A DNA stretch of 64,000 nucleotides, from the NCBI GenBank assembly GCA_942490825.1, contig CALNYG010000013.1, positions 55,311-119,310 of the forward strand, written 5' to 3'. Below are positions 12,033 to 55,490 of this stretch, piece after piece; the stretch's first letter is position 1; every line of letters starts with the position of its first letter. A model generated the notes under the pieces. It was not told the origin of the DNA. It saw nothing but the letters and a program-made list of their open reading frames with translations, and made no database searches. A program made the position numbers and the translations under genes. This DNA comes from Candidatus Moraniibacteriota bacterium (lineage in GTDB: Bacteria > Patescibacteriota > Minisyncoccia > Moranbacterales > GCA-2747515).

Positions 12033-12095
12033 TTTGTAGCTTAAATTGAAAAGTCTATAAAGTCGAAAGTGCAACTTATAGGTGGACAATAAATA

Positions 12096-12130
12096 AAAAA
12101 CGATAAATTTTAAATTTATCGTTTTTTATT
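12096..12130 (+). terminator. intrinsic terminator after rnj
   Basis: AAAAACGATAAATTT/TAAATTTATCGTTTTT palindromic stem followed by a T-run. Confidence 0.7.
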
Positions 12131-12195
12131 TGAAGAAAAGTCGAGTTTTTGTTATTATAGGTAAATGGAAGGGATAATAAATTAAATGGTGAAAT

Positions 12196-13383
12196 ATGAA
12201 AAAAAGGACTTTTTCAGGGGTACAACCAAGTGGTGATTTACACATTGGGAATTATTTAGGGGCGATTAAAAATTGGGTGGAGCTTCAGGATAATTATGAA
12301 TCGATTTTTTGTATTGTTGATTTGCATGCGATTACTGTTCCGCAGGATCCGAAGGAATTGCGAAAGAAGATTATTGAGATTGCGAAGATTTATATTGCGG
12401 CGGGAATTGATCCGAAGAAATCTTCTATTTTTGTGCAGTCGCAAGTTAAGGAGCATTCTGAATTAATGTGGATCTTAAATACGATTACGAAGAATGGAGA
12501 TTTAACTAAAATGACACAGTTTAAAGATAAATCTGGTGTGGATTTTGATAAACTTGAATTAGTTTTAAAAGAGGCAGAAAAACAGAGATGGAATGATATG
12601 GATGTAGATAGTAGAAAAAGAGCGGAAGATGAATTTAAAAGGGTTTCGGAAGAACAATCACCAGTTGAAGCTTTTAGACAAACTTTTGACATAGCTCGTT
12701 CAGCAACTTACGAAGATGCAAGAAAATATTTTCAAAAATTCAAAGAAGACTTTAATTCAATTGGAGTTGGCTTATATGATTACCCTGTTTTGATGGCGGC
12801 GGATATATTACTTTATAATACGGCGATTGTGCCGGTGGGAGAAGATCAGTTGCAACATGTTGAACTTGCACGAACTTTAGCACGACGATTCAATCATCAA
12901 TTTGGAGAAACTTTTATTGTTCCTGAAGCGGAAATTAAAAAAGAAGGAAAACGAATTATGGGACTAGATAATCCAGAAAAGAAAATGAGTAAGTCAGCAG
13001 AAAGTATTTATAATTACATTGCACTTAATGACGAAGCTGATGTTATTCGTAAAAAGATTCGAAAAGCCGTAACAGATAGTGGTAGTGAAATTGTATATCA
13101 AGATGACAAGCCAGCTTTGAAAAATTTAATTAATATTTATAGTTTACTTTCTGAAAAATCAATTCCAGAAATTGAGGAAATGTATAAAGGAAAAGGCTAT
13201 GGTGATTTTAAAAATGATTTGGCGGAGGTTGTGGTAGATTTTATTACTCCTTTTCAAGAGCGACTTAATGCGATTAGTGATGAGGAAGTTATGAAAATTT
13301 TAGCAGATGGTGCGGATAAAGTTCGAAAGATTGCAGAAGAAAAAATGAAAGAAGTTAAAGAGAAGGTTGGCTTTTTAGTTTAA
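12196..13383 (+). CDS. trpS: tryptophan--tRNA ligase with a ~70-aa internal insertion
   Basis: FSGVQPSGDLHIGNYLGA (HIGH-type motif), KMSKS at KKMSKSAES, YPVLMAADIL. 395 aa, versus the ~330 aa usual for bacterial TrpRS. Confidence 0.9.
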   Translation: MKKRTFSGVQPSGDLHIGNYLGAIKNWVELQDNYESIFCIVDLHAITVPQDPKELRKKIIEIAKIYIAAGIDPKKSSIFVQSQVKEHSELMWILNTITKNGDLTKMTQFKDKSGVDFDKLELVLKEAEKQRWNDMDVDSRKRAEDEFKRVSEEQSPVEAFRQTFDIARSATYEDARKYFQKFKEDFNSIGVGLYDYPVLMAADILLYNTAIVPVGEDQLQHVELARTLARRFNHQFGETFIVPEAEIKKEGKRIMGLDNPEKKMSKSAESIYNYIALNDEADVIRKKIRKAVTDSGSEIVYQDDKPALKNLINIYSLLSEKSIPEIEEMYKGKGYGDFKNDLAEVVVDFITPFQERLNAISDEEVMKILADGADKVRKIAEEKMKEVKEKVGFLV

Positions 13384-13387
13384 TTTT

Positions 13388-13409
13388 AAAAAGCCCGTGC
13401 GGCGAGCAC
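13388..13409 (+). repeat. GC-rich intergenic repeat, copy 1 (AAAAAGCCCGTGCGGCGAGCAC)
   Basis: Read directly. Its A-run and GCC pair with GGCTTTTTA at 13369-13377, and the loop contains the trpS stop codon. Confidence 0.8.
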
Positions 13410-13456
13410 AATTTAATTTAGAATTATTAATTAATAATTAAAAAAAAGATAGTAAA

Positions 13457-14779
13457 ATGAAGATTACAATAATAGGAACGGGTTATGTAGGTTTGGTTAG
13501 TGGAACATGTTTTGCTGATGCAGGTAATGATGTTATGTGTATTGATTTGGATAAGAAAAAAATAGAAGGTTTAAAAAATGGTGCGATGCCAATTTATGAG
13601 CCAGGACTAGAAAAGTTAGTTAAGAAAAATTATAAATCAGGAAAATTAAATTTTTCTACTAATATTGCGAAAGGAATTAAATTTGGTGACATTATTTTTT
13701 CAGCAGTGGGAACTCCTCCAGATAAGGATTTCCGAGCAGATTTGTCAGCAGTTAAAGCAGTGGCAAAAAGCTTTGGGCAAAATGCTAATAAGTTTAAAGT
13801 TTTCGTAAATAAATCTACAGTGCCAGTTGGGACAGGAAAAATGTGCAAGCAAATTATTGAAAAAGAATTAAAAAAGCGAAAGAAAAATGTTAATTTTGAA
13901 GTTGTTTCTAATCCTGAATTTTTACGAGAAGGTTCAGCAATTAAAGACACAACCAAGCCAGATCGTGTAGTAGTTGGAACAGAAAGTGAAAAGGTAAAAG
14001 AGATGATGAAAGAACTTTACAAACCATTCGTTACTAAGAAATCTCCTTTGATTTTCACGGATATTGAAAGTGCGGAAATTATCAAATATGCTTCCAATTC
14101 ATTTTTAGCGACAAAGATTTCTTTTATAAATGAAATTGCTAATTTTTGTGAAAAGGCAGGGGGAAATGTTGAGGAAGTAGCTAGTGGAATGGGATTGGAT
14201 AGTCGTATCGGTCCGAAGTTTTTAAATGCAGGAATTGGTTATGGAGGGTCTTGTTTTCCAAAGGATGTGCAAGCCTTGATTCAAACTGGAAAACAAGTTG
14301 GTTATGATTTTCGTATTTTGAATGCAGTGGAAAGTATTAATAAGAGTCAAAAAGGTAAGCTTTTTAATATTCTTAAAGAAAAAATGCCTAAGATGGAAGG
14401 TAAAACAGCGGCTATTTTAGGGCTTGCTTTTAAGCCAGAGACTGATGATATGCGTGACGCTCCATCTATTAAAATTATTAAAAAACTTCAAGCTGAAGGT
14501 GTGAACATCAAAGCTTTTGATCCAGTTGCCGTAGAAAATGCTAAAAATTATTTTTCTAAAGTAAATCTTAATTTTTCAGAAACTGCTTATGATGCAATTG
14601 AGGATGCTGATGTTGTTCTAGTTTTGACAGAGTGGAATGAGTTTAGAAAGCTAGATTTGAAAAAGGTTGAGAAATTGATGAAAGGTAATTTGGTAATTGA
14701 CGGAAGAAATATTTTCTCAATAGAAGATTTGAATAAAGCTGGATTACAAGGTACGTGTATCGGTTGTTTACAAAATTAG
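13457..14779 (+). CDS. ugd: UDP-glucose 6-dehydrogenase
   Basis: MKITIIGTGYVGLVSG (Rossmann fold), GGSCFPKD catalytic Cys motif, 440 aa. Confidence 0.88.
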   Translation: MKITIIGTGYVGLVSGTCFADAGNDVMCIDLDKKKIEGLKNGAMPIYEPGLEKLVKKNYKSGKLNFSTNIAKGIKFGDIIFSAVGTPPDKDFRADLSAVKAVAKSFGQNANKFKVFVNKSTVPVGTGKMCKQIIEKELKKRKKNVNFEVVSNPEFLREGSAIKDTTKPDRVVVGTESEKVKEMMKELYKPFVTKKSPLIFTDIESAEIIKYASNSFLATKISFINEIANFCEKAGGNVEEVASGMGLDSRIGPKFLNAGIGYGGSCFPKDVQALIQTGKQVGYDFRILNAVESINKSQKGKLFNILKEKMPKMEGKTAAILGLAFKPETDDMRDAPSIKIIKKLQAEGVNIKAFDPVAVENAKNYFSKVNLNFSETAYDAIEDADVVLVLTEWNEFRKLDLKKVEKLMKGNLVIDGRNIFSIEDLNKAGLQGTCIGCLQN

Positions 14780-14856
14780 ATTATTGGACATGTAAAATGT
14801 AGATGATTAGACTTGTGAAGATATTGTGATAATGTTTTCGAAGTTGTTTTCTTGCA

Positions 14857-14884
14857 GTAGAGTTCAGGTATACCTGAACTCTAC
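14857..14884. repeat. 28-bp perfect palindrome GTAGAGTTCAGGTATACCTGAACTCTAC (possible terminator of ugd)
   Basis: Self-complementary over all 28 nt. Not followed by a clear T-run. Confidence 0.6.
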
Positions 14885-14940
14885 TAACGGGAAAATAAAA
14901 AAACTTTTTAAAAAATAATTCTTTAAAAATAAATAAAAAC

Positions 14941-15525
14941 ATGAAGAAAATATTGGTAATTAAAGGACATCCAAAAGAAGAGGGTTTTTGTAATACTCTG
15001 GCGGATAGGTATATTAAGGGTGTAAAGACTGCAAAAAATAAAGTGGAAGTTGTGAATGTGGGGGATCTGTGTGTTGAGAGATTTATTAAATTCGAACATA
15101 AGAGTAATCCTGATTTACCTTTGGATTTTATTAAGGTTCAAAAATTAATAACTTGGGCAGATCATTTGGTTTTTGTTTATCCAATTTGGTGGGCAACTCC
15201 TCCAGCGATGATGAAGCTTTTTTTGGAAGTTATTTTGACTTCAGGTTTTGCTTATAAATATAAAGCTCCAATTCATGGTATTATTCCGAGTTGGGATGAA
15301 TTATTGTCTGGTAAAACTGCCCGATTGATTGCTACAATGGATTCTCCATCTATTTTTTATAAATGGATTTTACGTGATCCTTCTTATAAAATGATGAAGG
15401 CTAATTTGAATTTTTGTGGGATTAAACCTGTGAAAAGGAGTTATTTTGGTTCGGTTAAATTGTCTTCTGATGAGAAGAAAAAGAAGTGGTTGGAGAAGAT
15501 TTATCGGGTTGGGATGAAGGAGTAA
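14941..15525 (+). CDS. flavodoxin-like fold NAD(P)H dehydrogenase (quinone) family protein
   Basis: MKKILVIKGHPKEEGFCNTLADRY...ADHLVFVYPIWWATPPAMMKLF is typical of the Flavodoxin_2/NQO family. Confidence 0.7.
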   Translation: MKKILVIKGHPKEEGFCNTLADRYIKGVKTAKNKVEVVNVGDLCVERFIKFEHKSNPDLPLDFIKVQKLITWADHLVFVYPIWWATPPAMMKLFLEVILTSGFAYKYKAPIHGIIPSWDELLSGKTARLIATMDSPSIFYKWILRDPSYKMMKANLNFCGIKPVKRSYFGSVKLSSDEKKKKWLEKIYRVGMKE

Positions 15526-15542
15526 ATAAATTATATATTTTT

Positions 15543-16460
15543 ATGAAAGAGCAGATTAGTAATAAAGGGGAAGAATTGAAAAAGGAATATCACTTTGATG
15601 AGAAAAATGAATATTTTTCAATTATATTTAATTTTTTTCCTGCTATGATAGCAGGTATAGTAGTTTATTTTTCTTTTTTAGAATTTAGAAGTGAGGGTTT
15701 TTATGGAGATATAGTACCAATATTGTTTGTAGGTATATTTAGTATAATATTTTTTAAGTTTTATATTGATTTTTTTAAAAAAATATCTTTAAGAAAAAAA
15801 TATCGTTCTAGGGAATCATTTATTGAGGAGATTAGTTATAATCAAGATGTTTCAATGAAAGAAGCTAGATCTATTTTAGATGAAAAGAATAGGATCAGAA
15901 TTGAGATAATAAAAGAAGATGAGATTTCAGGCGATTTTTTAAAGGTATTTCAGTATATCGAAAAAACAATAGAATTTTATATTTGGTCTATATTCAGTTT
16001 TTTGACAATTGCGGTTTTATGTCTGGCAGCAATTTATTTTGTGCTACAATCAAATAATTTGTATAAGGAAGTTGGATTTTATTTTACTAATGAATTAAAT
16101 CAAATTATTCATAAAACAGCTGGACAAATTTTCATGGAAGGCTTTTTTAAAAATATTCGTTTTTTTATTTATGAATCCATACTTATAACTTTATTAGCTT
16201 TTTGTCTTAAAAAAATATCAAATTATATTTCTATGATTGAAGTTTACAAAGAATGGAAAGTTCTTTTAATTATGGATATTCAAAGACAATATAAAACAGC
16301 TAATGAAAATGAGAGAGGAATTGTTTCAAAAGAATTTCAACATAATTTTACTGAAAGACTGAAAAGACATGAAGAATGCTTATTGAATAACAAAGAAAAT
16401 ATAGAAATAAAAACAACCCCCGACAGATTAAATGGATTATTTTCAAAGACAAAGAAGTAA
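15543..16460 (+). CDS. hypothetical multi-pass membrane protein
   Basis: ATG 15543 is preferred; the track's GTG at 15486 overlaps the previous gene. Several hydrophobic segments, no family recognised. Confidence 0.4.
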   Translation: MKEQISNKGEELKKEYHFDEKNEYFSIIFNFFPAMIAGIVVYFSFLEFRSEGFYGDIVPILFVGIFSIIFFKFYIDFFKKISLRKKYRSRESFIEEISYNQDVSMKEARSILDEKNRIRIEIIKEDEISGDFLKVFQYIEKTIEFYIWSIFSFLTIAVLCLAAIYFVLQSNNLYKEVGFYFTNELNQIIHKTAGQIFMEGFFKNIRFFIYESILITLLAFCLKKISNYISMIEVYKEWKVLLIMDIQRQYKTANENERGIVSKEFQHNFTERLKRHEECLLNNKENIEIKTTPDRLNGLFSKTKK

Positions 16461-16465
16461 AAAAC

Positions 16466-16550
16466 ATGCTCAAAAAAATCCTAAAAAACATTCAGTTACA
16501 ACAAATTCCGACCACTCCAAAAAGAAATCATCAACAATATTTTTAACAAG
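16466..16550 (+). pseudogene. decayed duplicate of the recQ 5' end
   Basis: ATGCTCAAAAAAATCCTAAAAAACATTCAGTTACAACAAATTCCGACCACTCCAAAAAGAAATCATCAACAAT aligns with recQ 19093-19170 at roughly 80-85% identity with a 2-nt gap. It encodes FSYNKFRPLQKEIINN versus FGYNKFRPLQKEIIDN. Confidence 0.8.
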
Positions 16551-16574
16551 TTTGAAAGATCATAAAATATACCA

Positions 16575-17507
16575 TCATTCAATAAAACCCTTTTCTTTAA
16601 GTAGCTCTATTAGTTTCTCATTAAATATCACTACACCATCTTGATTCATATGATTAGAATCAAAAAAATAAGTCGAATCATCAAGATCCAAAATATTATT
16701 AAAATTAATATATTCCCCATAAGAACTCATTTTCTCATCAAAATATTCAGGATTAATATATGAATTATAATAATCATGCGTCATAGGAGCTTGTATTAAT
16801 ATAAAATCTATATTATTTGATTTAAATATATGTAAAATATCTTCAAATGCATTGATTTGATTTTTATTAATCTCAATCTCTTTTTCTTCAATCTCCTCAA
16901 GTTCATAATGCATAATTTCTTTTTCAACAAAACCTCCTGAGATATAGGTGTCATTAATTTTAATTTTTTTCTCAATGAATTTATCATTTAAATTAAAAAA
17001 ATCTTTATAAAATCCAAAAATAGCAGTATTGAGTGTCTTCATATGTTTTATTTTAGCCAACATTTTTAATGTCTCTATATCATTCTTATCATTTGCAATT
17101 AAATCCAATGATGATTCAACTCCTTCACTTGTAAAAGTATTTGGAAAAACTTCAAATATCACTAATTTTGGATTCAACTCCTTTAAATATCTATTGATTA
17201 GAACTTTAGTTTGGATAGGAGTTTGACTGCTTGATCCCAAATTAAAAACTTTCAATCCCTTTTCTTCATAGAGTCTGACATCGAATCCACGATATGAATG
17301 AGATGAGCCTAAAAATAAAATATCAACGTCTTTGAAATCTTTTACTTCATTCATTCTAGAATACATATGTCCATAGGATCCTATTCTATAATTTAAGTTA
17401 GGTGTAAAATTTTGAGGAAACAGTGTTCCCCAAACGCAAGTTAATATTACATATACGAAAAATGAGAATAAAATAAATTTAATAAGTGAAAGTATAAAAT
17501 ATTTCAT
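16575..17507 (-). CDS. DltD/AlgX-like (SGNH-type) accessory protein of an MBOAT O-acyltransferase
   Basis: N-terminal TM anchor, DILFLGSSHSYRGF block, and a position directly downstream of the MBOAT gene with a 3-nt gap. Confidence 0.5.
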   Translation of the reverse strand: MKYFILSLIKFILFSFFVYVILTCVWGTLFPQNFTPNLNYRIGSYGHMYSRMNEVKDFKDVDILFLGSSHSYRGFDVRLYEEKGLKVFNLGSSSQTPIQTKVLINRYLKELNPKLVIFEVFPNTFTSEGVESSLDLIANDKNDIETLKMLAKIKHMKTLNTAIFGFYKDFFNLNDKFIEKKIKINDTYISGGFVEKEIMHYELEEIEEKEIEINKNQINAFEDILHIFKSNNIDFILIQAPMTHDYYNSYINPEYFDEKMSSYGEYINFNNILDLDDSTYFFDSNHMNQDGVVIFNEKLIELLKEKGFIE

Positions 17508-17510
17508 AAG

Positions 17511-18962
17511 TTAAAATTGAAAATAAATAAAAGGGGTTTCGATTGTTTGCATATACATACCAATAGTAAAGATTATCAATGAATAAAAAGCCCAGCGAAG
17601 AGATCTTCTACAACTCAGACCTAATTTAGCAATTGCATGTTCTTGTTCTCTGCCGAGCCATTCAATAATCAAAAAAATAAATATTAAAAAAGATAAGGTT
17701 ATTACTCCATTCATATCTTTAAGTGCAGGGATTGTAAATAGAGAAAACGAAAATATTCTTGAAATGTAATTTATTGCATGACTAACATTTTCAGCTCTGA
17801 AAAATATCCAAGCAAAAATAGTTAGACCAAAAGTTAATGCCATAAGGAAAAATTCCTTTATGCTTGGTAAATATTTTCCTTTTGCCACAACTTCTAAATT
17901 AGACCTGTTTTTATTAGCTAACAGAAGTGGTAAAAAATAAATTGCATTTAATGCTCCCCAAATTATAAATGTCCAATTAGCACCATGCCAAAATCCACTG
18001 ACTATAAAAATAATAAAAATATTTCTAATTTTTTTCCAAATACTACCACGACTACCACCTAATGGAATATAGAGATAATCTCGAAACCATGTGGAAAGTG
18101 AGATGTGCCAGCGTCTCCAAAACTCTGCGATGTCTCTAGAAAAATAGGGAAATGCAAAGTTTTGCATTAAATTAAAGCCAAAAAGTCTCGATGTACCAAT
18201 TGCTATATCTGAGTAACCTGAAAAATCTCCATAAATTTGAAAGGCGAAAAAAAATGCTCCCAGCACTAAAGTACTACCTGAATAATCACTTGAATTATTG
18301 AAAATTAGATTTGCATATTCTGCACAGTTATCCGCTATCACAACTTTCTTAAATAAGCCCCAAAGTATTTGACGCATTCCATCAATAGATTTTGAATAGC
18401 TAAAAATTCTTTTTTTATGAAATTGAGGGAGTAAATTAGAAGCTCTTTCAATTGGTCCTGCAACTAATTGAGGAAAAAAGCTTACAAAAGCAGAAAATGC
18501 AATAAAATCTTTCGTTGGTTTTATTTTCTTTTTATATACATCTATTGTGTAGCTTAATGTTTGAAATGTGTAGAAACTTATACCTACAGGTAATATTATA
18601 TTTAAAGTATTTGCTTTTATCTCTGTTCCAAATAATGAGAATGCTGTAATAAAATTTTCTAGAAAAAAATTGTAATATTTAAAAAATCCTAAAAATCCAA
18701 GATTAACAAGAATGCTTATCCAAAATAATATTTTTCTTCTTTTGGCATTTTCTTCTTTCGAGAGTTTAATTCCAATAGAATAATCAATGACTGTGCTAAA
18801 AAATATCAATGCTAAAAATTTATAATCCCACCATCCATAAAATAAGTAACTTGTTGCAAAAAGTAAAAGGTTTTGTAACCTTAAGTTTTTGTTTGTTACA
18901 AACCAGTAAAGTATAAAAACTATAGGTAGGAATATTGCAAAATCAATAGAATTAAAAAGCAT
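17511..18962 (-). CDS. MBOAT family O-acyltransferase (AlgI/DltB-like)
   Basis: Multi-pass membrane protein with RRWHISLSTWFRDYLYIPLGGSRG, the conserved His motif of AlgI/DltB. Confidence 0.85.
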   Translation of the reverse strand: MLFNSIDFAIFLPIVFILYWFVTNKNLRLQNLLLFATSYLFYGWWDYKFLALIFFSTVIDYSIGIKLSKEENAKRRKILFWISILVNLGFLGFFKYYNFFLENFITAFSLFGTEIKANTLNIILPVGISFYTFQTLSYTIDVYKKKIKPTKDFIAFSAFVSFFPQLVAGPIERASNLLPQFHKKRIFSYSKSIDGMRQILWGLFKKVVIADNCAEYANLIFNNSSDYSGSTLVLGAFFFAFQIYGDFSGYSDIAIGTSRLFGFNLMQNFAFPYFSRDIAEFWRRWHISLSTWFRDYLYIPLGGSRGSIWKKIRNIFIIFIVSGFWHGANWTFIIWGALNAIYFLPLLLANKNRSNLEVVAKGKYLPSIKEFFLMALTFGLTIFAWIFFRAENVSHAINYISRIFSFSLFTIPALKDMNGVITLSFLIFIFLIIEWLGREQEHAIAKLGLSCRRSLRWAFYSLIIFTIGMYMQTIETPFIYFQF

Positions 18963-19092
18963 TGAATTTAAAATTTATAGGTTAATAGGTAAAGTTTAGA
19001 ATTAAGTCAAGATTTGTAGATTGTGTAAAATTAAGATATATTAAAAGTACATTTAGTGATTATATCATGAAATTTGTAATAATAAATAAATC

Positions 19093-21306
19093 ATGCCACA
19101 AAAAATTCTAAAAAAAACATTCGGTTACAACAAATTCCGACCGCTTCAAAAAGAAATAATAGACAATGTCTTAAATAAAAAAGACACCGTCGTATTAATG
19201 CCAACAGGAGGCGGAAAGTCACTTTGCTATCAAATTCCTGCAATCCACCTTCAAGGATTAACAGTTGTCGTTTCACCTTTGATTTCCTTAATGAAAGATC
19301 AAGTTGATGCTTTGCGACAAAATGGAGTTGAGGCTGCTTTTTGGAATTCGACACTTTCGCTTGAACAACAAAATAAATTACAAGAAAAAATACATAATAA
19401 AGAATTAAATCTTCTTTACATAGCACCAGAAAGATTTGGTGCAAGTGGATTTTTACAATTTTTACAAAATCTTAAAGACGACATTTCACTTTTCGCTATA
19501 GATGAGGCACATTGTATTTCTGCATGGGGACACGATTTTCGTCCAGATTATCGAAATTTACAAGTTCTAAAAAATGATTTTCCGAAAATTCCCATTATTG
19601 CACTTACAGCCACAGCGACGCCGAAAGTTTTACAAGATATAATTTCCAACTTAAATTTAAATAAAGATTTTAAAGTTTTTCAAGGATCCTTTGATCGAAA
19701 AAATTTATTTTATGAAGTGAAAAGAAAACAAAAATCTTTTGATCAAATTTGTTATTTTTTAAATAAAAGAAAAAAAGAATCGGGAATTATTTATTGTTTC
19801 TCACGGAAAAAAGTAGACGCAATGGCTCAAAAGTTAAAACATAAAGGCTTTTCAGTTTTGCCGTACCATGCAGGATTAAGTCCGCAAATTAGAGCAAAAA
19901 ATCAAGATAAATTTATTAAAGATGAAGTGCAAATTATTGTGGCAACGATTGCTTTTGGGATGGGAATTGATAAACCAGATGTGCGTTTTGTAATTCATGA
20001 TAGTTTGCCAAAAAATATTGAAAGTTACTATCAAGAAACTGGGCGAGCGGGACGTGATGGTGATCCAGCACATTGTCTTTTATTTTTTTCTTATGGCGAC
20101 AAGCGAAATATTGAATTTTTCTTTAATGATATTTCGGATGAGTCTGAAAGAAAAAATGCTGAAGAAAAGTTGCAAAAAATGATTGATTTTTGTGAACAGA
20201 AAAGATGTCGTCGGCAAATGCTTTTAAATTATTTTGATGAAGATTTTTCAATTTCACCAGATAGAAGTGACGATGAGGCAAAAAAATGTTGTGATTTTTG
20301 CGTGAATCCTCCCGATGTTTTTGATGCGACGGAAATTTCTTTTAAAATATTTTCAGCGATTGCACGGACTAATCAACGTTTTGGCATGATGACAATTATT
20401 GATATTTTAAAAGGTAGTAAAAATCAAAAAATGGTGGGACGAGGTTTTGAAAAATTGTCAGTTTTTGGAATTGTTACAGATTTTTCTAAAGATGCGATGA
20501 GTGAAATTATTCGACAGTTAATTGATCGAAATTTTTTGCGATTAACAAAAGATGAATTTCCTGTTTTGAAATTAACACAACAGGCAGCTGAAGCAATTTC
20601 ACATAGAAAAATGATTAGTCTTTTTTCAATTAAAAAAGATTTTATTGAATCAAGTACAAATGTTCAGGAAGAATTTGAGTTTGATGAGGAACTTTTTGAG
20701 GACTTACGTATTTTACGAACAAGAATTGCTCAAGAGAAAAATCTTCCACCTTATGTTATTTTTCATGATAAGGCTTTGCGTCAGATTGCAGCAGTTCTAC
20801 CAACTTCGAAAGATGATTTAGAAAATATTTCAGGTATTGGTTCGCGAAAAATTAATGATTATGGTGATGGTGTGATTGAGGTGGTGCAGGATTTTTGTGA
20901 AAGGAAAAAAGTTGATAAAGATGTTCATAAAGATAATATTGATTTTGATGAAATTAATAAGACGGAAGTTAAAATTGCACCACCGAATGGTCGCTCTGAG
21001 GATATTTTAAATTTATTGAAACAAGGTAAGTCTGTTCTGGAGATGACTAATATTTTTGGAATTAAGGAAGGGACAATTTTTGCTCATATTGAACGTTTAA
21101 TTTTTTCAGGTGATATTGAGGGAATTGATTATTTTGTTGATAAAGAAACTCAGATTGTGATCGAGAATGCTTTTGATGGTAATTTTAAACAGAATCTTTC
21201 TGTTATTAAAGAGAGATTGGAGGACGATTTTAGTTATGATGAGATTAGGTTGGTGAGAGTGATTGGATTGAGAAATAAGGAAAAGAAAGTTATAATTAAG
21301 ATATAA
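19093..21306 (+). CDS. recQ: ATP-dependent DNA helicase RecQ
   Basis: FGYNKFRPLQKEII, MPTGGGKSLCYQIPA, DEAHCISAWGHDFRPDY, a Zn-binding C-rich region, an HRDC-like region (LRILRTRIAQEKNLPPYVIFHDKALRQIA) and an extra C-terminal domain. Confidence 0.9.
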   Translation: MPQKILKKTFGYNKFRPLQKEIIDNVLNKKDTVVLMPTGGGKSLCYQIPAIHLQGLTVVVSPLISLMKDQVDALRQNGVEAAFWNSTLSLEQQNKLQEKIHNKELNLLYIAPERFGASGFLQFLQNLKDDISLFAIDEAHCISAWGHDFRPDYRNLQVLKNDFPKIPIIALTATATPKVLQDIISNLNLNKDFKVFQGSFDRKNLFYEVKRKQKSFDQICYFLNKRKKESGIIYCFSRKKVDAMAQKLKHKGFSVLPYHAGLSPQIRAKNQDKFIKDEVQIIVATIAFGMGIDKPDVRFVIHDSLPKNIESYYQETGRAGRDGDPAHCLLFFSYGDKRNIEFFFNDISDESERKNAEEKLQKMIDFCEQKRCRRQMLLNYFDEDFSISPDRSDDEAKKCCDFCVNPPDVFDATEISFKIFSAIARTNQRFGMMTIIDILKGSKNQKMVGRGFEKLSVFGIVTDFSKDAMSEIIRQLIDRNFLRLTKDEFPVLKLTQQAAEAISHRKMISLFSIKKDFIESSTNVQEEFEFDEELFEDLRILRTRIAQEKNLPPYVIFHDKALRQIAAVLPTSKDDLENISGIGSRKINDYGDGVIEVVQDFCERKKVDKDVHKDNIDFDEINKTEVKIAPPNGRSEDILNLLKQGKSVLEMTNIFGIKEGTIFAHIERLIFSGDIEGIDYFVDKETQIVIENAFDGNFKQNLSVIKERLEDDFSYDEIRLVRVIGLRNKEKKVIIKI

Positions 21307-21325
21307 TTTTTTAGTAATATATTCT

Positions 21326-21892
21326 ATGAAAAATTTATTAATAGTAATTACGGGATTTCCAGGAACTGGAAAAACAACTTTTGGTAAAAAAATATCGGAA
21401 GATTTTAACATGCCATTTATTTCAAAAGATGATTTTAAAGAGATTATGTTTGATGGATTTGGATACAAAGATCGTAATTTATCTAAAAAATTTGGTATTG
21501 TTAGTTACGATATTCTTTATCATGTTGCAGAAGCTAATTTAAGAAGTAATAATTCTGTTATCATTGAAACAAATTTTGATCCTAAATTTGCAAATAAGAG
21601 AATTTTAAATTTAAAGAAAAAATATGATTTTGAAATTTTGCAAATAAGATTTTATACAGAAGGCAATGTTCTTTTTGAAAGATTTAAAAAAAGAGCTTTT
21701 TCAGAAAATCGTCATTCAGGTCATTGTGATAGTGAATGTTTAGAGGAATGGCGACCAATACTATTAAAAGGCATGATAGAAGCTTTGGATATAAATGGAG
21801 ATATTGTTGATGTTGATACAACAGATTTTGATAAAATTAATTATAAAGAAGTTTTTGATGTTATTAGTAATAAATTAGGTAATATTAATTAA
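21326..21892 (+). CDS. P-loop kinase-like ATP-binding protein (AAA_33-type)
   Basis: Walker A motif ITGFPGTGKTTFGKKI. 188 aa. Confidence 0.55.
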   Translation: MKNLLIVITGFPGTGKTTFGKKISEDFNMPFISKDDFKEIMFDGFGYKDRNLSKKFGIVSYDILYHVAEANLRSNNSVIIETNFDPKFANKRILNLKKKYDFEILQIRFYTEGNVLFERFKKRAFSENRHSGHCDSECLEEWRPILLKGMIEALDINGDIVDVDTTDFDKINYKEVFDVISNKLGNIN

Positions 21893-21902
21893 ATAAAAAT
21901 TT

Positions 21903-22205
21903 ATGAACAAAAAACAACCGCAGTCAAACAATCAAATAAAACTTGCAGATAATATCGCAGGAGCAGAATATGCAAATATCGCACAAATCATGCATAATAA
22001 AGAAGAATTTCGTTTAATGTTTGCACATATTTTTGAACCGACTGGAAAAGTAGTTGGCAAAGTAACAGTTACGCCCGGGCATTTCAAGAGGATGGTAAAA
22101 GCGATGCAGGAAAATTTAAAAAAGTACGAAGAGCAGTTTGGTGAAATTGAAAAATCAGAAGGTCCTAGTTCTGGAGGGATCGGGTTTGCGGATAGAAAAG
22201 AGTAG
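21903..22205 (+). CDS. DUF3467 family protein
   Basis: GAEYANIAQIMHNKEEFRLMFAHIF...VTVTPGHFKRMVKAMQENLKKYEEQFGEI matches my recollection of the DUF3467 pattern. Confidence 0.65.
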   Translation: MNKKQPQSNNQIKLADNIAGAEYANIAQIMHNKEEFRLMFAHIFEPTGKVVGKVTVTPGHFKRMVKAMQENLKKYEEQFGEIEKSEGPSSGGIGFADRKE

Positions 22206-22211
22206 TTTTTT
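22137..22211 (+). repeat. 75-bp direct repeat, copy 1 (functional 3' end of the DUF3467 gene)
   Basis: TTTGGTGAAATTGAAAAATCAGAAGGTCCTAGTTCTGGAGGGATCGGGTTTGCGGATAGAAAAGAGTAGTTTTTT. About 90% identical to 22541-22615. Confidence 0.85.
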
Positions 22212-22233
22212 ATTAAAAATTAAAAACAATAAA

Positions 22234-22461
22234 ATGAAAAAATGTTCAAATTGTAAAAAGGAATTAGAACCCATATTTATAATCGATGGAACTAACACGT
22301 CAAGCGTTCGAAATGGATTTGTTTTTACTAAGGAAAAACCAACGAAATCATGGACTGGAAGTGTTAATAATGAAGCTGGTGTTGTTCGTGCTTTCTTTTG
22401 TTCTGAATGTAAAAAAGTTGAGTTATATGCGATTGAGGGAGAAAAAGATTTATTTGTATAA
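22234..22461 (+). CDS. small zinc-ribbon protein (75 aa)
   Basis: MKKCSNCKKE...FFCSECKK gives two CxxC pairs. ATG 22234 is preferred over the track's TTG at 22138, which overlaps the previous gene. Confidence 0.5.
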   Translation: MKKCSNCKKELEPIFIIDGTNTSSVRNGFVFTKEKPTKSWTGSVNNEAGVVRAFFCSECKKVELYAIEGEKDLFV

Positions 22462-22540
22462 AATAAATTTAAAATTTTTAAAGTTCAGTTTAAGTTTATT
22501 CTTAAATTGGGCTTTTATTTTTATTTCAATTAATAATGAT

Positions 22541-22615
22541 TTTGGTGAAATTGAAAAGTCAGAAAGTCCTATCTCGGGAGGGATCGGGTTTGCGGATAGA
22601 AAAGAATAGTTTTTT
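22541..22615 (+). pseudogene. 75-bp direct repeat, copy 2 (orphan DUF3467 3' end fragment)
   Basis: Encodes FGEIEKSESPISGGIGFADRKE-stop with no upstream gene body. Same stop-codon context and T6 run as copy 1. Confidence 0.8.
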
Positions 22616-22640
22616 GTGGTACACTAGGTTGTATTAATTT

Positions 22641-23564
22641 ATGAATCGAATTTTTATGAAAAATGTTATCATAACAATCTTAGTATTTTTAGTTTTGATT
22701 TCGAGCGGGATAAGTTTATATTTTTTCAAAGAATTAAATTCTAATAAAATAGAAACGAATGAAAAAGATATTCCTACTATTGAAGATAAAAAAGTAGAGG
22801 AAGAAGTTTTGGATCAGATTTCAGGTAAAGTTAAAAAGACAGGCGAAAAAGAAAAAATTTCAAATCAGAATTTAAAACCTGAAGATGATTTGGCTGTTTA
22901 TAAAAATGAAAAATATAATTATAGTTTTAAATATCCGAAAGATTGGTATCTTTATGAATATTCTGATTATAGAGAAAAATGTCCAACTAAAAGTGATCTT
23001 TTTGGAGTTGAGAAATCTGTTATTTTAAGTAAGAGTGAATTAAAAGGATGCGAGATCGTTGAGGATGGAGAATATAATAGTGCTTTTGGAGGAAATATTT
23101 ATTTTCATGCAATGGACAAGGGAGGAATGGTTAATATTGTTGAAAATCGCTTAAGTAGTTATAATGAAGAATACAAGGAGGCGTTTATTGGAAATGGTAT
23201 AAGGTCAACAAAGTCTGTATTTGAGGGCTCTCCAAGATATACTTACGACTTTAGAGTGGCAAGATTTAATTATAGTATTATAATTAAAAAAGATAATAAA
23301 GAAAATATCGATTCAGAATTGATGAGTTTTTTAGATAGTATAGTTATAGAAGATTATTATTGTGAGACAGATAGTGATTGTGTTATAAAAGAAGAAAAAG
23401 ATACTTGTCTTGAATGTGATAAAAAATTTGTTTGTGTTAATGAGAATTCAGAAATTAATAAGGTAAAAGCTTATTGTGCTAGTCCTAAAAATTATGAAAC
23501 ATGTATAACTTCAATCGTTCCGACAGGGTGTCAGTGTGTTAATAATAGGTGTGAAGATAATTAA
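22641..23564 (+). CDS. hypothetical membrane-anchored or secreted protein with a Cys-rich C-terminus
   Basis: N-terminal TM/signal segment (VIITILVFLVLISSG). C-terminal 70 aa carry about 10 Cys. Confidence 0.4.
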   Translation: MNRIFMKNVIITILVFLVLISSGISLYFFKELNSNKIETNEKDIPTIEDKKVEEEVLDQISGKVKKTGEKEKISNQNLKPEDDLAVYKNEKYNYSFKYPKDWYLYEYSDYREKCPTKSDLFGVEKSVILSKSELKGCEIVEDGEYNSAFGGNIYFHAMDKGGMVNIVENRLSSYNEEYKEAFIGNGIRSTKSVFEGSPRYTYDFRVARFNYSIIIKKDNKENIDSELMSFLDSIVIEDYYCETDSDCVIKEEKDTCLECDKKFVCVNENSEINKVKAYCASPKNYETCITSIVPTGCQCVNNRCEDN

Positions 23565-23581
23565 TATTTCTTTAGCAAATT

Positions 23582-23614
23582 AAAAAACCTCTTTCTTGAT
23601 GATTGAGGTTTTTT
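23582..23614 (+). terminator. intrinsic terminator
   Basis: AAAACCTC-13 nt-GAGGTTTT running into a T-run. Confidence 0.65.
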
Positions 23615-23646
23615 ATTTTGTTGATTTTTTTAAAATTATGTAGTAT

Positions 23647-23664
23647 AGCCCGTGCGGCGAGCAC
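23647..23664 (+). repeat. GC-rich intergenic repeat, copy 2 (AGCCCGTGCGGCGAGCAC + T6)
   Basis: Read directly. Confidence 0.8.
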
Positions 23665-23704
23665 TTTTTTAATCATGCTGAAAAGTTTAAATAAATCATA
23701 AATT

Positions 23705-23733
23705 TTGCCACCATTCCTTAAAATTGCTACAAT
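23705..23733 (+). promoter_or_regulatory. sigma70-type promoter candidate for pheT
   Basis: TTGCCA, 17-nt spacer, TACAAT. Confidence 0.5.
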
Positions 23734-23770
23734 TAGAGATGTAAATTAACTTTTAAAAATATTAATTTTT

Positions 23771-26221
23771 ATGAAATTCTCATACAATTGGCTTAAAGAA
23801 TTAAGCGGAACAAAAAAAACAGCTCAAGAAATAGCAGAACTATTTCTAACACATAGCTTTGAAGTTGAAGAAATTATCGATTTAGGGAAAGGTTTAGAAA
23901 ATGTTGTTGTAGGTGAAGTAGTAGAAGTGGAAAAACATCCTGATGCAGATAAACTAAATGTGGCAAAAGTGAATGTTGGTAACGAAGAATTACAAATTGT
24001 TTGCGGTGCACCAAATTTAAAAGTTGGGCAAAAAGTTCCGGTAGCATTAATCGGAGCAAAATTACCGATGCCAAAAAATAAAGATGGCGTTGATTTTTTT
24101 GAAATTAAAAAAGCAAAATTGCGAGGAGTTGAGTCAAGCGGAATGATTTGTGCAGAAGACGAATTAGAACTTGGTGAAAATCACGAGGGAATTATGGTTT
24201 TGGCTGAAGATGCGGAAGTTGGAAAACCTTTTGCTGAGTATTTAAATTTAAATGACACTGTTTTTGACATTGATATTTTGCCAAATCGTGGTCATGATTG
24301 TTTGAGCTATAACGGAATCGCACGAGAGATAGTTACTTTAGATCAGGATATTTCGGAAGATTTAGAATTTCAAATTTCAAGTTTTAAAAAAAATAATAAT
24401 TTAGCTTCTAAATTAAATTTAGATAATTCAGACTTGTCTGCCGAACAGGTAGGATTAGAAATTAGTCTTGATACAGAAAATTGCAGTCGATATATTGGTA
24501 CAAAAATTAGCAATGTGGAAATCGGTGAATCACCAGAATGGATGAAGGCTCGATTGAAGGCGTCAGGAATGAATTCGATTAACAATTTAGTTGATATTAC
24601 AAATTATGTGATGTTGGAAACTGGTCAGCCATTGCATGCTTTTGATTCACGAGGTTTCGAGAAAATTGCTGTGCGACAGGCGAAAAGTGATGAAAAGTTA
24701 ATTTTACTTAATGATCAAGAAGTGAAGTTAATTGAAGATGATATGGTAATTACTCATGATGGGGAGCCAGTAGGTTTAGCTGGTGTGATGGGTGGGAAAG
24801 ATAGTGGAATCAAAGATGATACAACTAATATTATTTTAGAAAGTGCTAGTTTTCATTCAAGCACAATTCGATTAACTCAGCGACGATATAATTTACAAAC
24901 AGATGCGGCATACCGATATGAGCGTGATATTGATCCTAATTTTGCTGAGCAAGCAGCGGTACGAGCAATTGAGTTGATTCAAGAGTTGTGTGGTGGTGAA
25001 GTTGAAGAAATTAAAGATGTATATTTAGAACCAATTACTTTTTGGTCCGTTAAACTTTCTGTTGAATATGTACAGAAACTTTTAGGTGTAAAAATTTCTA
25101 GTGATGAAGTTGTTAATATTTTGAATCGTTTGGGAATTACTGTTGTTAAAGATTTAGGTGAAGAAAGATTTGCTTGTAAAATTCCAACTCGACGGAGAGA
25201 TTTGAGGACGCAAGAAGATTTAATTGAAGAAATTGGGCGAATTTATGGTTATGATAAGATTACACCAACTCCGATTGTGAGTGATGTTGAAATGCCTCAT
25301 CGAAATGAACAAAGATTTTTTGAGCGAACTTTGAAAGATGTTTGTGTAAGTAATGGTTTTAATGAAATTAAAAGTTATTCTTTCTATGGTAAAGATCAGG
25401 CGGAGATAATTGGTTTAGGTGATAAGAAGCACTTGGCACTTTTGAATCCGTTTAGTTCTGAACAAGATTATTTGCGAAGAAGTTTAATGGTGCATTTATT
25501 ATCTGCAGATAAAAAGAATTTGAGTTATTTTGATCAGGTAAATATTTTTGAAATCGGACGAGTTTATAATCCAACAGAAACTTCTCTTCCGGATGAGCGA
25601 TTAGTTTTCGGAGCAAGTGTGGCGAGCAAAGATAAAAAAGGTGAACAATTTTTTGAACTAAAAGGTTTGCTAGAGGTTTTGTTTGAGCGAGTTGGTTTGA
25701 ATGATTTTTATTTTGATGACTCTGTGGAAAGTGATGAAGAATATTTGATTCCTGCTTTACATCCATCTCGACAGGCTTTGATTAAAAATGGTGAGGGTAA
25801 AATTTTAGGTTGGATTGGTGAGGTTAATCGAAATGCACACAAGCAATTTGGTTTGAAAAAAGTTCGAGCGGCGGTTTGTGAAGTTGATGTTGATGCTTTG
25901 CGGGCGGAGACTGAGAAGGAGAGATTTTTTGAACCGTTGGCGAAGTTTCCTTTTGTGAATCGTGATTTGTCGATGGTTGTTGGTGAAGAGGTTCGAGTTG
26001 GTGATGTTGAGAGGGTGATGTATTTGGCTGGTGGTGATTTGGTGAAGGATGTTGATTTGTTTGATCTTTATGTTAATCCTGAAACTAGTGAACGTTCAAT
26101 GGCTTTTCGGATTACTTTTGGGAATGTTGAGAGGACTTTGAAGTCTGAGGAGGTTGATGAGAAGATTGTTAAGGTTATTGAGAGTGTTGAGGGGGAGTTG
26201 GGGGTTGAGGTTAGGAAATAG
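23771..26221 (+). CDS. pheT: phenylalanine--tRNA ligase beta subunit
   Basis: MKFSYNWLKEL start, tRNA-binding domain (HPDADKLNVAKVNVG), B3/4 and B5 domains, FDX-ACB-like C-terminus. 816 aa. Confidence 0.9.
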   Translation: MKFSYNWLKELSGTKKTAQEIAELFLTHSFEVEEIIDLGKGLENVVVGEVVEVEKHPDADKLNVAKVNVGNEELQIVCGAPNLKVGQKVPVALIGAKLPMPKNKDGVDFFEIKKAKLRGVESSGMICAEDELELGENHEGIMVLAEDAEVGKPFAEYLNLNDTVFDIDILPNRGHDCLSYNGIAREIVTLDQDISEDLEFQISSFKKNNNLASKLNLDNSDLSAEQVGLEISLDTENCSRYIGTKISNVEIGESPEWMKARLKASGMNSINNLVDITNYVMLETGQPLHAFDSRGFEKIAVRQAKSDEKLILLNDQEVKLIEDDMVITHDGEPVGLAGVMGGKDSGIKDDTTNIILESASFHSSTIRLTQRRYNLQTDAAYRYERDIDPNFAEQAAVRAIELIQELCGGEVEEIKDVYLEPITFWSVKLSVEYVQKLLGVKISSDEVVNILNRLGITVVKDLGEERFACKIPTRRRDLRTQEDLIEEIGRIYGYDKITPTPIVSDVEMPHRNEQRFFERTLKDVCVSNGFNEIKSYSFYGKDQAEIIGLGDKKHLALLNPFSSEQDYLRRSLMVHLLSADKKNLSYFDQVNIFEIGRVYNPTETSLPDERLVFGASVASKDKKGEQFFELKGLLEVLFERVGLNDFYFDDSVESDEEYLIPALHPSRQALIKNGEGKILGWIGEVNRNAHKQFGLKKVRAAVCEVDVDALRAETEKERFFEPLAKFPFVNRDLSMVVGEEVRVGDVERVMYLAGGDLVKDVDLFDLYVNPETSERSMAFRITFGNVERTLKSEEVDEKIVKVIESVEGELGVEVRK

Positions 26222-27529: not shown

Positions 27530-27564
27530 TTAAAATATGTATAGGTAACCTATACATATTTTAA
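27530..27564. promoter_or_regulatory. 35-bp perfect palindrome (17-bp arms, 1-nt centre) 22 nt upstream of the R-M gene
   Basis: TTAAAATATGTATAGGT-A-ACCTATACATATTTTAA, verified base by base. Confidence 0.6.
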
Positions 27565-37441: not shown

Positions 37442-37777
37442 AACATTTTTTTAAATTTCTATAGTATATTTTTACTATAGAATTTAAATAATTTAATAAT
37501 TATTAATTGTGAAATTGAGCACGCCTATATTCTAGTGCTAAATAAATAAAAGGTCAACTTGGAAAATGTTTCAGAAAAAAAACTGATAAAATTTAACTTT
37601 TAATTTTTCTTTGATTGAGTTTTAGAATTAAGTCTAAGTTATTATTTTTAGATATTATATTTTAAAAATGCTTTATGTAAAATTAATTGACGCTTCATAT
37701 TACGACTGAATAAATCTATTTAAATTGAAGAATATTATTAAAAAATAAAATTTATTTTTTAATAATAAGAAATAAAT

Positions 37778-55233: not shown

Positions 55234-55490
55234 CACATTAATATAAAAGGATAGATTTTTCTTACCTGTTTTCTATGTTTTATTAGTTTAAAATAAATTT
55301 TAAAAATTTATTTTAATTTGAATAATATTCTAAAAATTTTATAAAATCTTTTGTGGATATCTTCAGAAGTGCAGTACTTTTTAGTAAATGAAAAAGAAGA
55401 AGTCCATGGTCAAAAATTTCTTTATTGATGATGACTGATAGAAATATTATATTTTATTTAAAATGATTAATTTGAATATCTCCAAGAAGA

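Follow-up and report, generated by a model that had tools for sequence, protein, structure and literature searches.

Integrative elements that target gene ends, such as e14/phage 21 at icd, the dusA-specific islands and the tRNA islands, encode their tyrosine integrase beside att and have an identical core in common. Homology-facilitated illegitimate recombination (HFIR) needs no integrase, and its illegitimate joint usually has a microhomology of 3-10 bp. Both HFIR and single-crossover partial-gene duplications have been described (PMC3240628), and displaced gene ends of the HFIR type are found in the T6SS effector-immunity arrays of Vibrio cholerae and among Rhs orphan ends (PMC5361080). A related integrase-free route, insertion with long target duplication (Nobusato/Furuta/Kobayashi), leaves target duplications of 30-420 bp and was reported mostly for competent species; the published inserts carry restriction-modification genes between repeats that are 93-100% identical (PMC2853133). 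The com genes are reported to be conserved across CPR, with natural transformation demonstrated only in Saccharibacteria (PMC10633639).

CPR/Patescibacteria are uncultivated and their gene gain is largely inferred, but at the locus described here the footprint of an acquisition is still legible. The mechanism that we favour for it is already known from other bacteria, and the window, i.e. the whole 64-kb stretch of DNA that was analysed, is a further example. The organism is Candidatus Moraniibacteriota, an ultra-small CPR bacterium. The features of the locus are collected in Table 1.

Table 1 Features of the recQ and DUF3467 locus, with positions in the window.
Feature	Position	Strand	Evidence
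Flavodoxin-like (Flavodoxin_2) core gene; stop forms the left slot boundary	14941..15525	+	Pfam 3.4e-32
memb305, hypothetical multi-pass membrane protein, slot module 1	15543..16460	+	no Pfam/NCBIfam match
Copy A, probable recQ 5'-end remnant (-5 to +85), frameshifted	16461..16549	+	blastn, tblastn, shuffle test, state sharing
DUF1574/DltD-like SGNH-type partner with N-terminal membrane anchor, GSSH and DSxH motifs	16575..17507	-	Pfam DUF1574 7.9e-8
MBOAT (AlgI/DltB-type) membrane O-acyltransferase, full length	17511..18962	-	Pfam MBOAT 1.4e-27
MBOAT-recQ divergent intergenic region	18963..19092	.	~34 nt at its end common to L010
recQ start, functional counterpart of copy A	19088..19178	+	blastn pair
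recQ, intact, all RecQ domains, mosaic	19093..21306	+	Pfam; mosaic test
AAA_33 kinase-like gene, second variable slot (recQ to DUF3467)	21326..21892	+	Pfam
DUF3467 core gene, intact	21903..22205	+	80-92% identity to relatives
DUF3467 3' end, duplicated downstream	22137..22211	+	self-blastn, z = 30
Small zinc-ribbon gene, 75 aa, weak DUF6487 match, absent from relatives	22234..22461	+	lies between DUF3467 3' ends
Copy B, DUF3467 3'-end remnant	22541..22615	+	92% over 64 nt, E 1.5e-21

The start of recQ occurs twice in the window. By blastn, copy A and the recQ start are 81.3% identical over 91 columns, two of which are gap columns (E 1.5e-19, 86 bits), and the runner-up match anywhere in the window reached 30 bits. 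The core that aligns without gaps (16483-16549 versus 19112-19178) has a length of 67 nt and an identity of 85%. Against 1000 dinucleotide shuffles, which served as the null for repeat scores, the local alignment score of 100 compares with 23.4 ± 3.2 (maximum 40; z = 24). The original prediction of a duplicated recQ 5' end (~80 nt, 80-85% identity, a 2-nt gap) was thus borne out as statistically significant once the two copies had been aligned computationally, with two corrections to its borders. The similarity starts at 16461 and not at 16466, taking in the 5 nt that precede the ATG, and 5 nt, instead of 6 nt, separate this ATG (16466) from the upstream stop codon, which ends at 16460.

On the protein level, residues 10-29 of RecQ match 16491-16550 at 80% identity (tblastn). 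Some 8 changes are private to copy A, and its reading frame is shifted after codon 7 by a deletion of 2 nt. The longest identical run between the copies comprises 19 nt (+31 to +49) and is internal to the repeat, while the distal repeat end (+70 to +85) is mismatched. Searches around copy A for RNA families, terminators, promoters and tRNAs gave nothing above background; the closest tRNA is 15 kb away. Positions 16541-18415 are matched at 99.8% identity by an independent Logan contig (L020, run ERR9669538), which spans the cassette/remnant junction and reaches 9 nt into the remnant. Judging from these data, copy A is probably a dead remnant of the recQ 5' end, left as a scar of recombination.

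Comparison with four relatives, three of which are one species, shows that the region from the flavodoxin-like gene to recQ is a hypervariable slot and a hot spot of recombination. We placed its left boundary at the stop of the flavodoxin-like gene, because homology to L010 and L013 ends exactly there, and its right boundary within the intergenic region, because the last ~34 nt before recQ match the region upstream of recQ in L010. Slot module 1, memb305, is absent from the relatives and has just two homologues, both distant (49% and 44%), among 5.8 billion proteins; these lie on short contigs, and the next gene there encodes a Ser hydrolase or a protein kinase and is not recQ.

Each relative carries unrelated cargo in the slot. 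L010 has an MFS transporter, divergent from recQ across an intergenic region, and L013 has a methyltransferase together with a PD-(D/E)XK nuclease (restriction-modification), with a different upstream gene abutting recQ. In L011, L001 and L012 the end of an IS30 transposase lies 46 nt upstream of recQ; the 40-aa ORF fragment in L011 was recognised as IS30-family transposase by tblastn against plasmids, whereas NCBIfam gave no match. None of the relatives has a second recQ fragment in this slot. The empty site that the original prediction had proposed to look for, with memb305 running straight into recQ, did not turn up in any of the four: the slot is substituted in each and memb305 stands nowhere directly before recQ. 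A scan of JGI data with a degenerate recQ 5' pattern, which fits all known relatives and copy A, returned no matches. A second scan with the DUF3467 protein returned 37 loci (43-65% identity), none of which has a window gene (recQ, MBOAT or others) within 10 kb and which are therefore uninformative on the slot. The second slot is occupied in the relatives by DUF6714, a GDSL lipase or an unknown gene.

A second scar, with the geometry of the first, lies 3 kb downstream of it, where the last 75 nt of DUF3467 are repeated around the zinc-ribbon gene. Copy B reached z = 30 in the shuffle test, and its downstream flank is still that of L010 and L011. Self-blastn of the window in 300-nt chunks detected only two gene-end remnants in the 64 kb, namely copy A and copy B. 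A scar at the DUF3467 3' end in addition to that at recQ suggests a general recombination process at the locus rather than one dedicated element. We also considered a single replacement of ~6 kb as the source of both scars; its geometry fits, but the divergence of the scars (19% for copy A, 8-9% for copy B) and their nearest relatives differ, and it was not established. The unequal divergence fits two events as well as one, and the scars may stem from either.

Two-component O-acyltransferases composed of an MBOAT and an SGNH-like protein are known from DltB/DltD, AlgI/AlgJ/AlgX and PatA/PatB. The 2.5-kb minus-strand block between the recQ copies consists, as had been predicted, of two intact ORFs for an MBOAT and an SGNH/DltD-like protein. 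As in the known systems, an SGNH-type partner that is anchored in the membrane and has GSSH and DxxH motifs comes after the MBOAT; LFLGSSH and DSxH are kept in an alignment with two homologues. Unlike in these systems, the partner belongs to DUF1574, with a Pfam match above the curated cut-off, and not to DltD, AlgJ or PatB; its match to Pfam DltD is weak (0.008; 16 bits, under the cut-off of 22.7). A further difference to DltB/DltD is that the MBOAT is no DltB equivalog, scoring 143 bits against LTA_dltB (TIGR04091), far under the 375-bit cut-off, and that neither dltA nor dltC adjoins the cassette. The cassette thus does not qualify as a DltB/DltD D-alanylation system; it does have the make-up of a generic MBOAT plus SGNH-like two-component O-acyltransferase, i.e. 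an MBOAT with an adjacent, membrane-anchored and motif-bearing partner.

The MBOAT shares 73-80% amino acid identity with 120 homologues, of which the named ones are nearly all from Bacteroidota, and it falls inside the divergence range of this family. Compared with MBOAT/partner pairs from non-CPR organisms, the cassette is 74-78% identical at the nucleotide level (MBOAT 78-80% and partner 50-55% at the amino acid level), and homology extends from the ATG of the MBOAT to near the stop of the partner, i.e. over one unit. The pairing is kept in every non-CPR homologue locus that was fetched (L016-L019, L058, L059). Two of the non-CPR contigs are identifiable as Bacteroidota: one is from Echinicola pacifica, where the pair lies within a polysaccharide locus, and the other carries a Por_Secre_tail gene. 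The cassette is absent from all four close relatives, and apart from the recQ copies it is bounded by no convincing inverted or direct repeats. It is an intact, horizontally acquired two-gene O-acyltransferase unit of Bacteroidota type, which shows genes crossing phylum boundaries into reduced CPR genomes. Its predicted role is presumably the acylation (acetylation) of a cell-envelope glycan.

The recQ gene itself, 78-86% identical to its relatives at the nucleotide level, is significantly mosaic. Its first ~1340 nt are L011-like and its 3' end is L010-like, with informative sites divided 60 versus 125 to the left of ~nt 1345 and 142 versus 49 to the right (maximum chi2 66.4, p<=0.0005). Copy A shares four states with L013, a more distant relative, at sites where L013 departs from the majority of window, L010 and L011 (P ~1e-4 to 6e-4), and no state is exclusive to copy A and the window's own recQ. 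These patterns support an origin of the two recQ ends from different recQ lineages and not by a recent tandem duplication, in agreement with the original prediction that one end came from another lineage. In the flavodoxin-like gene, where a left-hand anchor was sought, no mosaicism was evident.

Our best explanation for the locus, which we consider probable, is a scar of homology-anchored, integrase-independent recombination, by HFIR or by insertion with long target duplication, and not a self-mobile element. Two slot haplotypes would have been spliced, with copy A as the joint between the two modules. In the first, memb305 would have abutted recQ, an architecture seen in L013 with its different upstream gene; in the second, the MBOAT and DUF1574/DltD-like cassette would have stood divergent from recQ across the intergenic region, as the MFS transporter does in L010. 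By HFIR, this would take a crossover somewhere in the long homology of recQ plus an illegitimate joint ~85 nt into the resident gene; the single crossover of a circularised fragment, as in insertion with long target duplication, would be geometrically equivalent. Both routes would leave an intact recQ and a displaced 5' stub without an integrase. The enzymology that we infer is a RecA-type anchor plus an illegitimate joint after DNA uptake, and either module may have arrived last.

The homology and mosaicism of recQ provide the anchor that HFIR requires. Insertions with long target duplication are defined by an insert of <20 kb, direct repeats of >30 bp and no mobility genes; here the insert is ~2.5 kb and free of mobility genes, and each of the two repeats (89 and 91 nt) aligns to the one recQ 5' end present in L010, L011 and L013. 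The 75-nt DUF3467 repeats fit the definition likewise. The locus resembles the published cases in its short gene block between direct repeats of the target, both of which align to a single target, and in the lack of transposase and integrase. It differs in its cargo (an acyltransferase pair, and a zinc-ribbon gene at the second site), in the identity of its repeats (81% and 92%), and in that the repeats cover a gene end, so that the gene stays intact. With the T6SS and Rhs loci it has in common that foreign DNA stands beside a conserved anchor gene, that a fragment of the resident gene is displaced, that no integrase is involved and that the locus is a hot spot. There, the displaced piece is the variable 3' end of a toxin gene and the arrays grow repeatedly, whereas the stubs in the window are the conserved recQ 5' end and the conserved DUF3467 3' end, both from housekeeping-type genes.

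Several points run counter to the simplest form of this explanation. The simplest HFIR model would predict an L010-like remnant, corresponding to the lineage of the recQ 3' part, but copy A is closest to L013. Had the copies already diverged to ~81% identity at the time, a single crossover confined to their 91 nt would have been very inefficient. No relative has an uninterrupted target with otherwise the same flanks, as a true indel would show, and no parental haplotype, empty or donor, was found among the four relatives, in the JGI scans or among the memb305 homologues. The locus provides evidence from a natural population that accessory genes of CPR move by homology-anchored, integrase-free recombination, as DNA uptake predicts.

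A purely local origin, in which the start of recQ was duplicated in tandem or by slippage, the cassette was inserted afterwards and the redundant copy decayed neutrally, with the live copy perhaps overwritten by gene conversion, appears unlikely to us. In its favour, the copies are closely spaced direct repeats, the private changes and the deletion in copy A are as neutral decay predicts, and the demonstrated exchange of the recQ 5' part between lineages could mask an original sister relationship. Nevertheless, copy A has no state exclusive to the window's recQ and four states with L013. A local duplication would also need two or three separate events instead of one recombination, and would leave unexplained why a foreign cassette sits exactly between the copies and why a second insert has a like geometry.

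The reading first proposed, in which a cassette-bearing element integrated at the recQ 5' end by means of an integrase, since lost or acting in trans, and supplied a replacement end, we likewise consider doubtful. The part that stood is the attL/attR-like geometry, in which an acquired foreign block has an intact gene on one side and the displaced remnant of a gene end on the other. As at e14/phage 21, dusA and tRNA islands, native and element-borne copies of a gene end flank the block, are diverged and leave the gene intact; moreover, the two recQ ends are of different lineages, and the slot is a hot spot in which one relative carries an IS30 transposase. What did not stand is the element itself. 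In contrast to those islands, no tyrosine integrase and no identical core were found here. Both cassette ORFs match only MBOAT and DUF1574/DltD and no integrase or transposase family, as had been predicted for the block. The 6 kb between the scars, which hold recQ, AAA_33, DUF3467 and the 75-aa zinc-ribbon gene, likewise encode no integrase, recombinase or transposase, and IS30-like sequence is absent from the window. The distal repeat boundary lacks an identical core, although decay since the event could have erased it. The question raised originally, whether the MBOAT/DltD pair is flanked by recQ fragments elsewhere, is answered in the negative by three non-CPR contexts, in which the pair never lies beside recQ or a fragment of it. 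The slots of the relatives contain unrelated cargo and no recQ repeats, and the second scar flanks a 75-aa gene, which is unable to encode a recombinase.

An assembly chimera, in which two haplotypes of different strains were fused at recQ-like sequence into an arrangement present in no cell, is very improbable. In its favour, the locus is strain-variable, the closest relatives of the source are MAGs, so that it too is probably a metagenome-assembled genome, and in one relative three assemblies end immediately before recQ. These contig ends are explained by the IS30 copy. The frameshift and private substitutions of the remnant are not expected of a live allele, copies with 81% identity and no identical run beyond 19 bases are too dissimilar to confuse an assembler, and contig L020 reproduces the cassette/remnant junction, over just 9 nt of the remnant.

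In practice, stubs of this kind are cheap markers for recombination hot spots in metagenome-assembled genomes. A wider reading, which we put forward as speculative and rather improbable, is that accessory genes in this Moraniibacteriota clade circulate on fragments in which 45-90 nt from the end of the adjoining core gene are retained. If so, the stubs may act as portable homology tags that permit re-insertion beside recQ or DUF3467 and thereby an exchange of cassettes without a recombinase; the Bacteroidota-type cassette may, as part of the same improbable reading, indicate that the episymbiont has Bacteroidota for its physical host or neighbour. Three candidate instances of such stubs are at hand, two in the window and a third in L010, where a degraded recQ promoter and start lies next to DUF6714.

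Searching the whole window by blastn with the recQ start revealed a second copy upstream of the gene (copy A), with 81.3% identity over 91 columns including two gap columns (86 bits; the best unrelated match in the window reached 30 bits) and an ungapped core of 85% identity over 67 nt. The local alignment score was 100, compared to 23.4 ± 3.2 (maximum 40) for 1000 dinucleotide shuffles (z = 24). The similarity is thus significant, and the diverged duplicate of the recQ 5′ end put forward in the original prediction is confirmed. At the protein level, RecQ residues 10-29 and 16491-16550 are 80% identical. Copy A retains its ATG at 16466, 5 nt past the stop codon of the upstream gene, and is a pseudogene fragment, because a 2-nt deletion after the ATG destroys the reading frame.

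Features of the recQ region, slot contents of related loci and copies of the recurrent motif
Feature	Position	Strand	Remarks
Membrane-protein gene	15543-16460	+	in window slot, with copy A and cassette
Copy A	16461-16549		recQ 5′-end remnant
DUF1574 ORF	16575-17507	-	intact; 7.9e-8; DltD similarity weak
MBOAT ORF	17511-18962	-	intact; Pfam 1.4e-27
Counterpart of copy A	19088-19178		start of live recQ
recQ	19093-21306	+	
DUF3467 3′ end	22137-22211		last 75 nt
Zinc-ribbon gene	22234-22461		75 aa; between both DUF3467 3′-end copies; absent from relatives
Copy B	22541-22615		DUF3467 3′-end remnant
L010 slot		-	MFS transporter; RecQ identity to window 87%
L011, L001, L012			one species; RecQ identity to window 84%
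L013 slot			N6/N4 methyltransferase, 139-aa ORF, PD-(D/E)XK nuclease; RecQ identity to window 77%
AGCCCGTGCGGCGAGCAC, exact	13392, 23647, 33073, 56702	+	
AGCCCGTGCGGCGAGCAC, diverged	52373, ~51401	+	
AGCCCGTGCGGCGAGCAC, relatives	L010:5770, L011:4337, L001:4221, L012:4226		

In an alignment with four recQ starts, copy A displayed about 8 private changes besides the 2-nt deletion, and no state exclusive to itself and the window's own recQ. At four sites where the related locus L013 differs from the majority of window, L010 and L011, copy A matches L013; the chance of this agreement is ~1e-4, or 6e-4 on third codon positions alone, values that a transition bias would raise somewhat. Copy A also adjoins the preceding gene, like recQ in L013, whereas the live recQ is preceded by an intergenic region and a divergent neighbor, as in L010. 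Thus, the two ends stem from different recQ alleles and architectures, supporting the earlier remark that one came from another lineage and arguing against a recent local duplication as the origin of copy A. Moreover, the live recQ is itself a mosaic produced by recombination: the 5′ ~1340 nt resemble L011 most closely, the 3′ ~500 nt L010. Left of ~nt 1345, informative sites favor L011 over L010 by 125 to 60, and right of it L010 over L011 by 142 to 49 (max chi2 66.4, permutation p ≤ 0.0005). Thus, homologous exchange between lineages occurs in recQ.

Proteins of Candidatus Moraniibacteriota/Moranbacteria MAGs share 84-87% identity with the window RecQ, and four related contexts were recovered. 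Their common backbone comprises trpS, ugd, a flavodoxin-like gene, a variable slot, recQ, a further slot and DUF3467, and continues to pheT. On the left, homology reaches precisely to the flavodoxin-like gene's stop codon; on the right, it returns 9-34 nt 5′ of the recQ ATG. The slot genes of L013 probably form a restriction-modification unit. Three independent assemblies of the L011 species, the nearest named relative, break just 5′ of recQ. Their contigs start with a partial ORF (L011:3-125), 46 nt upstream of recQ, corresponding to the C-terminal end of transposases of the IS30 family (792 plasmid records; 61% over 33 aa). Between recQ and DUF3467, too, each of the four genomes has a different gene. 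As slot content differs in every genome, the region is a hot spot of gene flux. None of the relatives contains a second recQ 5′ copy in the flavodoxin-recQ slot, nor the predicted empty site; the slot holds other cargo instead. Restriction-modification genes also occupy variable positions around the locus (L013:3300-5116; L010:8355-10107; L011:6900-10069), as N6_N4 or C5 methylases with PD-(D/E)XK, HinP1I- or NgoFVII-type nucleases.

Within the cassette between the recQ copies, the DUF1574 partner conserves the GSSH and DSxH motifs. The best 120 MBOAT homologs are all 73-80% identical to the window MBOAT over their full length, and those named are nearly all Bacteroidota (Echinicola pacifica, Bacteroidia, Bacteroidales, Salibacteraceae, Xanthomarina, Winogradskyella, Pontibacter and one Endomicrobiia MAG). 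Since identity among the homologs themselves ranges from 72 to 100% (median 79%), the window MBOAT lies within the family's own spread. Judging from these relationships, the cassette is foreign, and an envelope acyltransferase pair is a notable cross-phylum acquisition. Of three homologous contexts inspected, L016 has a T9SS Por_Secre_tail gene and L017 is a polysaccharide locus of Echinicola; the third is L058. All three have a 306-308-aa partner after the MBOAT gene, 50-55% identical to that of the window. DNA identity of 74-78% extends from the MBOAT ATG to near the partner stop, so that the mobile unit consists of the two genes alone. Neither recQ nor a recQ fragment lies near the pair in these three loci, at odds with the idea that such fragments flank it elsewhere. 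Cassette G+C is low everywhere, at 27% in the window (30% overall) and 31% in Echinicola pacifica (L017:8001-10382), within a 38% G+C locus; the pair looks horizontally mobile inside Bacteroidota as well. A 99.8% identical Logan contig (L020) confirms both the cassette and the point where it meets copy A, into which the contig extends 9 nt. Compared with window 17511-18415, positions 1-904 of this contig have a 1-nt indel that breaks the MBOAT ORF into pieces of 69 and 218 aa, reflecting either an error in sequencing or a gene-inactivating population variant.

The block is flanked by a displaced gene-end copy and an intact gene, a geometry that fits two integrase-free routes from the literature. 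In homology-facilitated illegitimate recombination, incoming DNA recombines at one end through homology, while its other end is joined illegitimately (PMC3240628), a route proposed to account for gene ends displaced in T6SS and Rhs loci of Vibrio (PMC5361080). Alternatively, a circularised fragment that carries a piece of the target may enter by single crossover, which in experiments surrounds the insert with partial gene duplications of 109-950 bp (PMC3240628). Insertion with long target duplication, which the scar also resembles and which is found without mobility genes and mainly in competent species (PMC2853133), may arise in this way. Reports describe core com genes across CPR, and Saccharibacteria have been shown to undergo natural transformation (PMC10633639). 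We prefer an anchored double event, with one crossover in recQ homology and one illegitimate joint, because recQ, at 2.2 kb, provides plenty of homologous sequence and has demonstrably recombined. The last-arriving module would be either the cassette, together with the new start of recQ, or the membrane-protein gene, together with the old start. A circular single crossover would be very inefficient between 91-nt copies if they were already as diverged as now (81% identity). We find no support for an attL/attR-type integrative element: neither an integrase nor a transposase is encoded in the block, as noted originally, and searches there yielded no identical core at the repeat border and no RNA gene or tRNA target. 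The original reading was partly right, in geometry, foreign origin and ends of different lineage. We regard the locus as a well-preserved new instance of an already-known event type in an under-studied phylum.

A second scar lies at DUF3467, whose 3′ end, including stop codon and T-run, is repeated as copy B (92% identity over 64 nt, E 1.5e-21, z = 30). Copy B is flanked by the sequence that follows DUF3467 in L010 and L011, and an orthologue of L011's next gene comes after it; copy B is therefore the stranded native DUF3467 end. Nucleotide and translated self-searches of the 64 kb returned no further gene-end remnants. Together, the two remnants enclose a segment of about 6 kb from cassette to zinc ribbon, and both scars could stem from one replacement event; their divergence is unequal (19% for copy A, 8-9% for copy B), and their nearest relatives differ too. 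L010 contains, in the downstream slot between a minus-strand DUF6714 gene and DUF3467, a degraded duplicate of the region upstream of its own recQ together with the first 45 nt of the gene (L010:4509-4619; 72% over 112 nt; 56 bits, with background scores reaching at most 35). This suggestive but weak similarity may represent a third scar of the same kind.

Elsewhere in this genome, intergenic regions repeatedly contain a G+C-rich motif of 17-18 nt, AGCCCGTGCGGCGAGCAC, always on the plus strand; no copies are expected by chance. It is kept at the orthologous site 5′ of pheT in relatives, and an Rfam scan of window 12000-26000 returned no match for the stretch bearing it. Near-perfect palindromes of 29-41 nt were detected as self reverse-complement matches at 12091-12131, 14856-14885, 27530-27564, 37733-37767 and 55288-55316. 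Several lie just beyond gene ends, and the palindromes may be terminators or operators.
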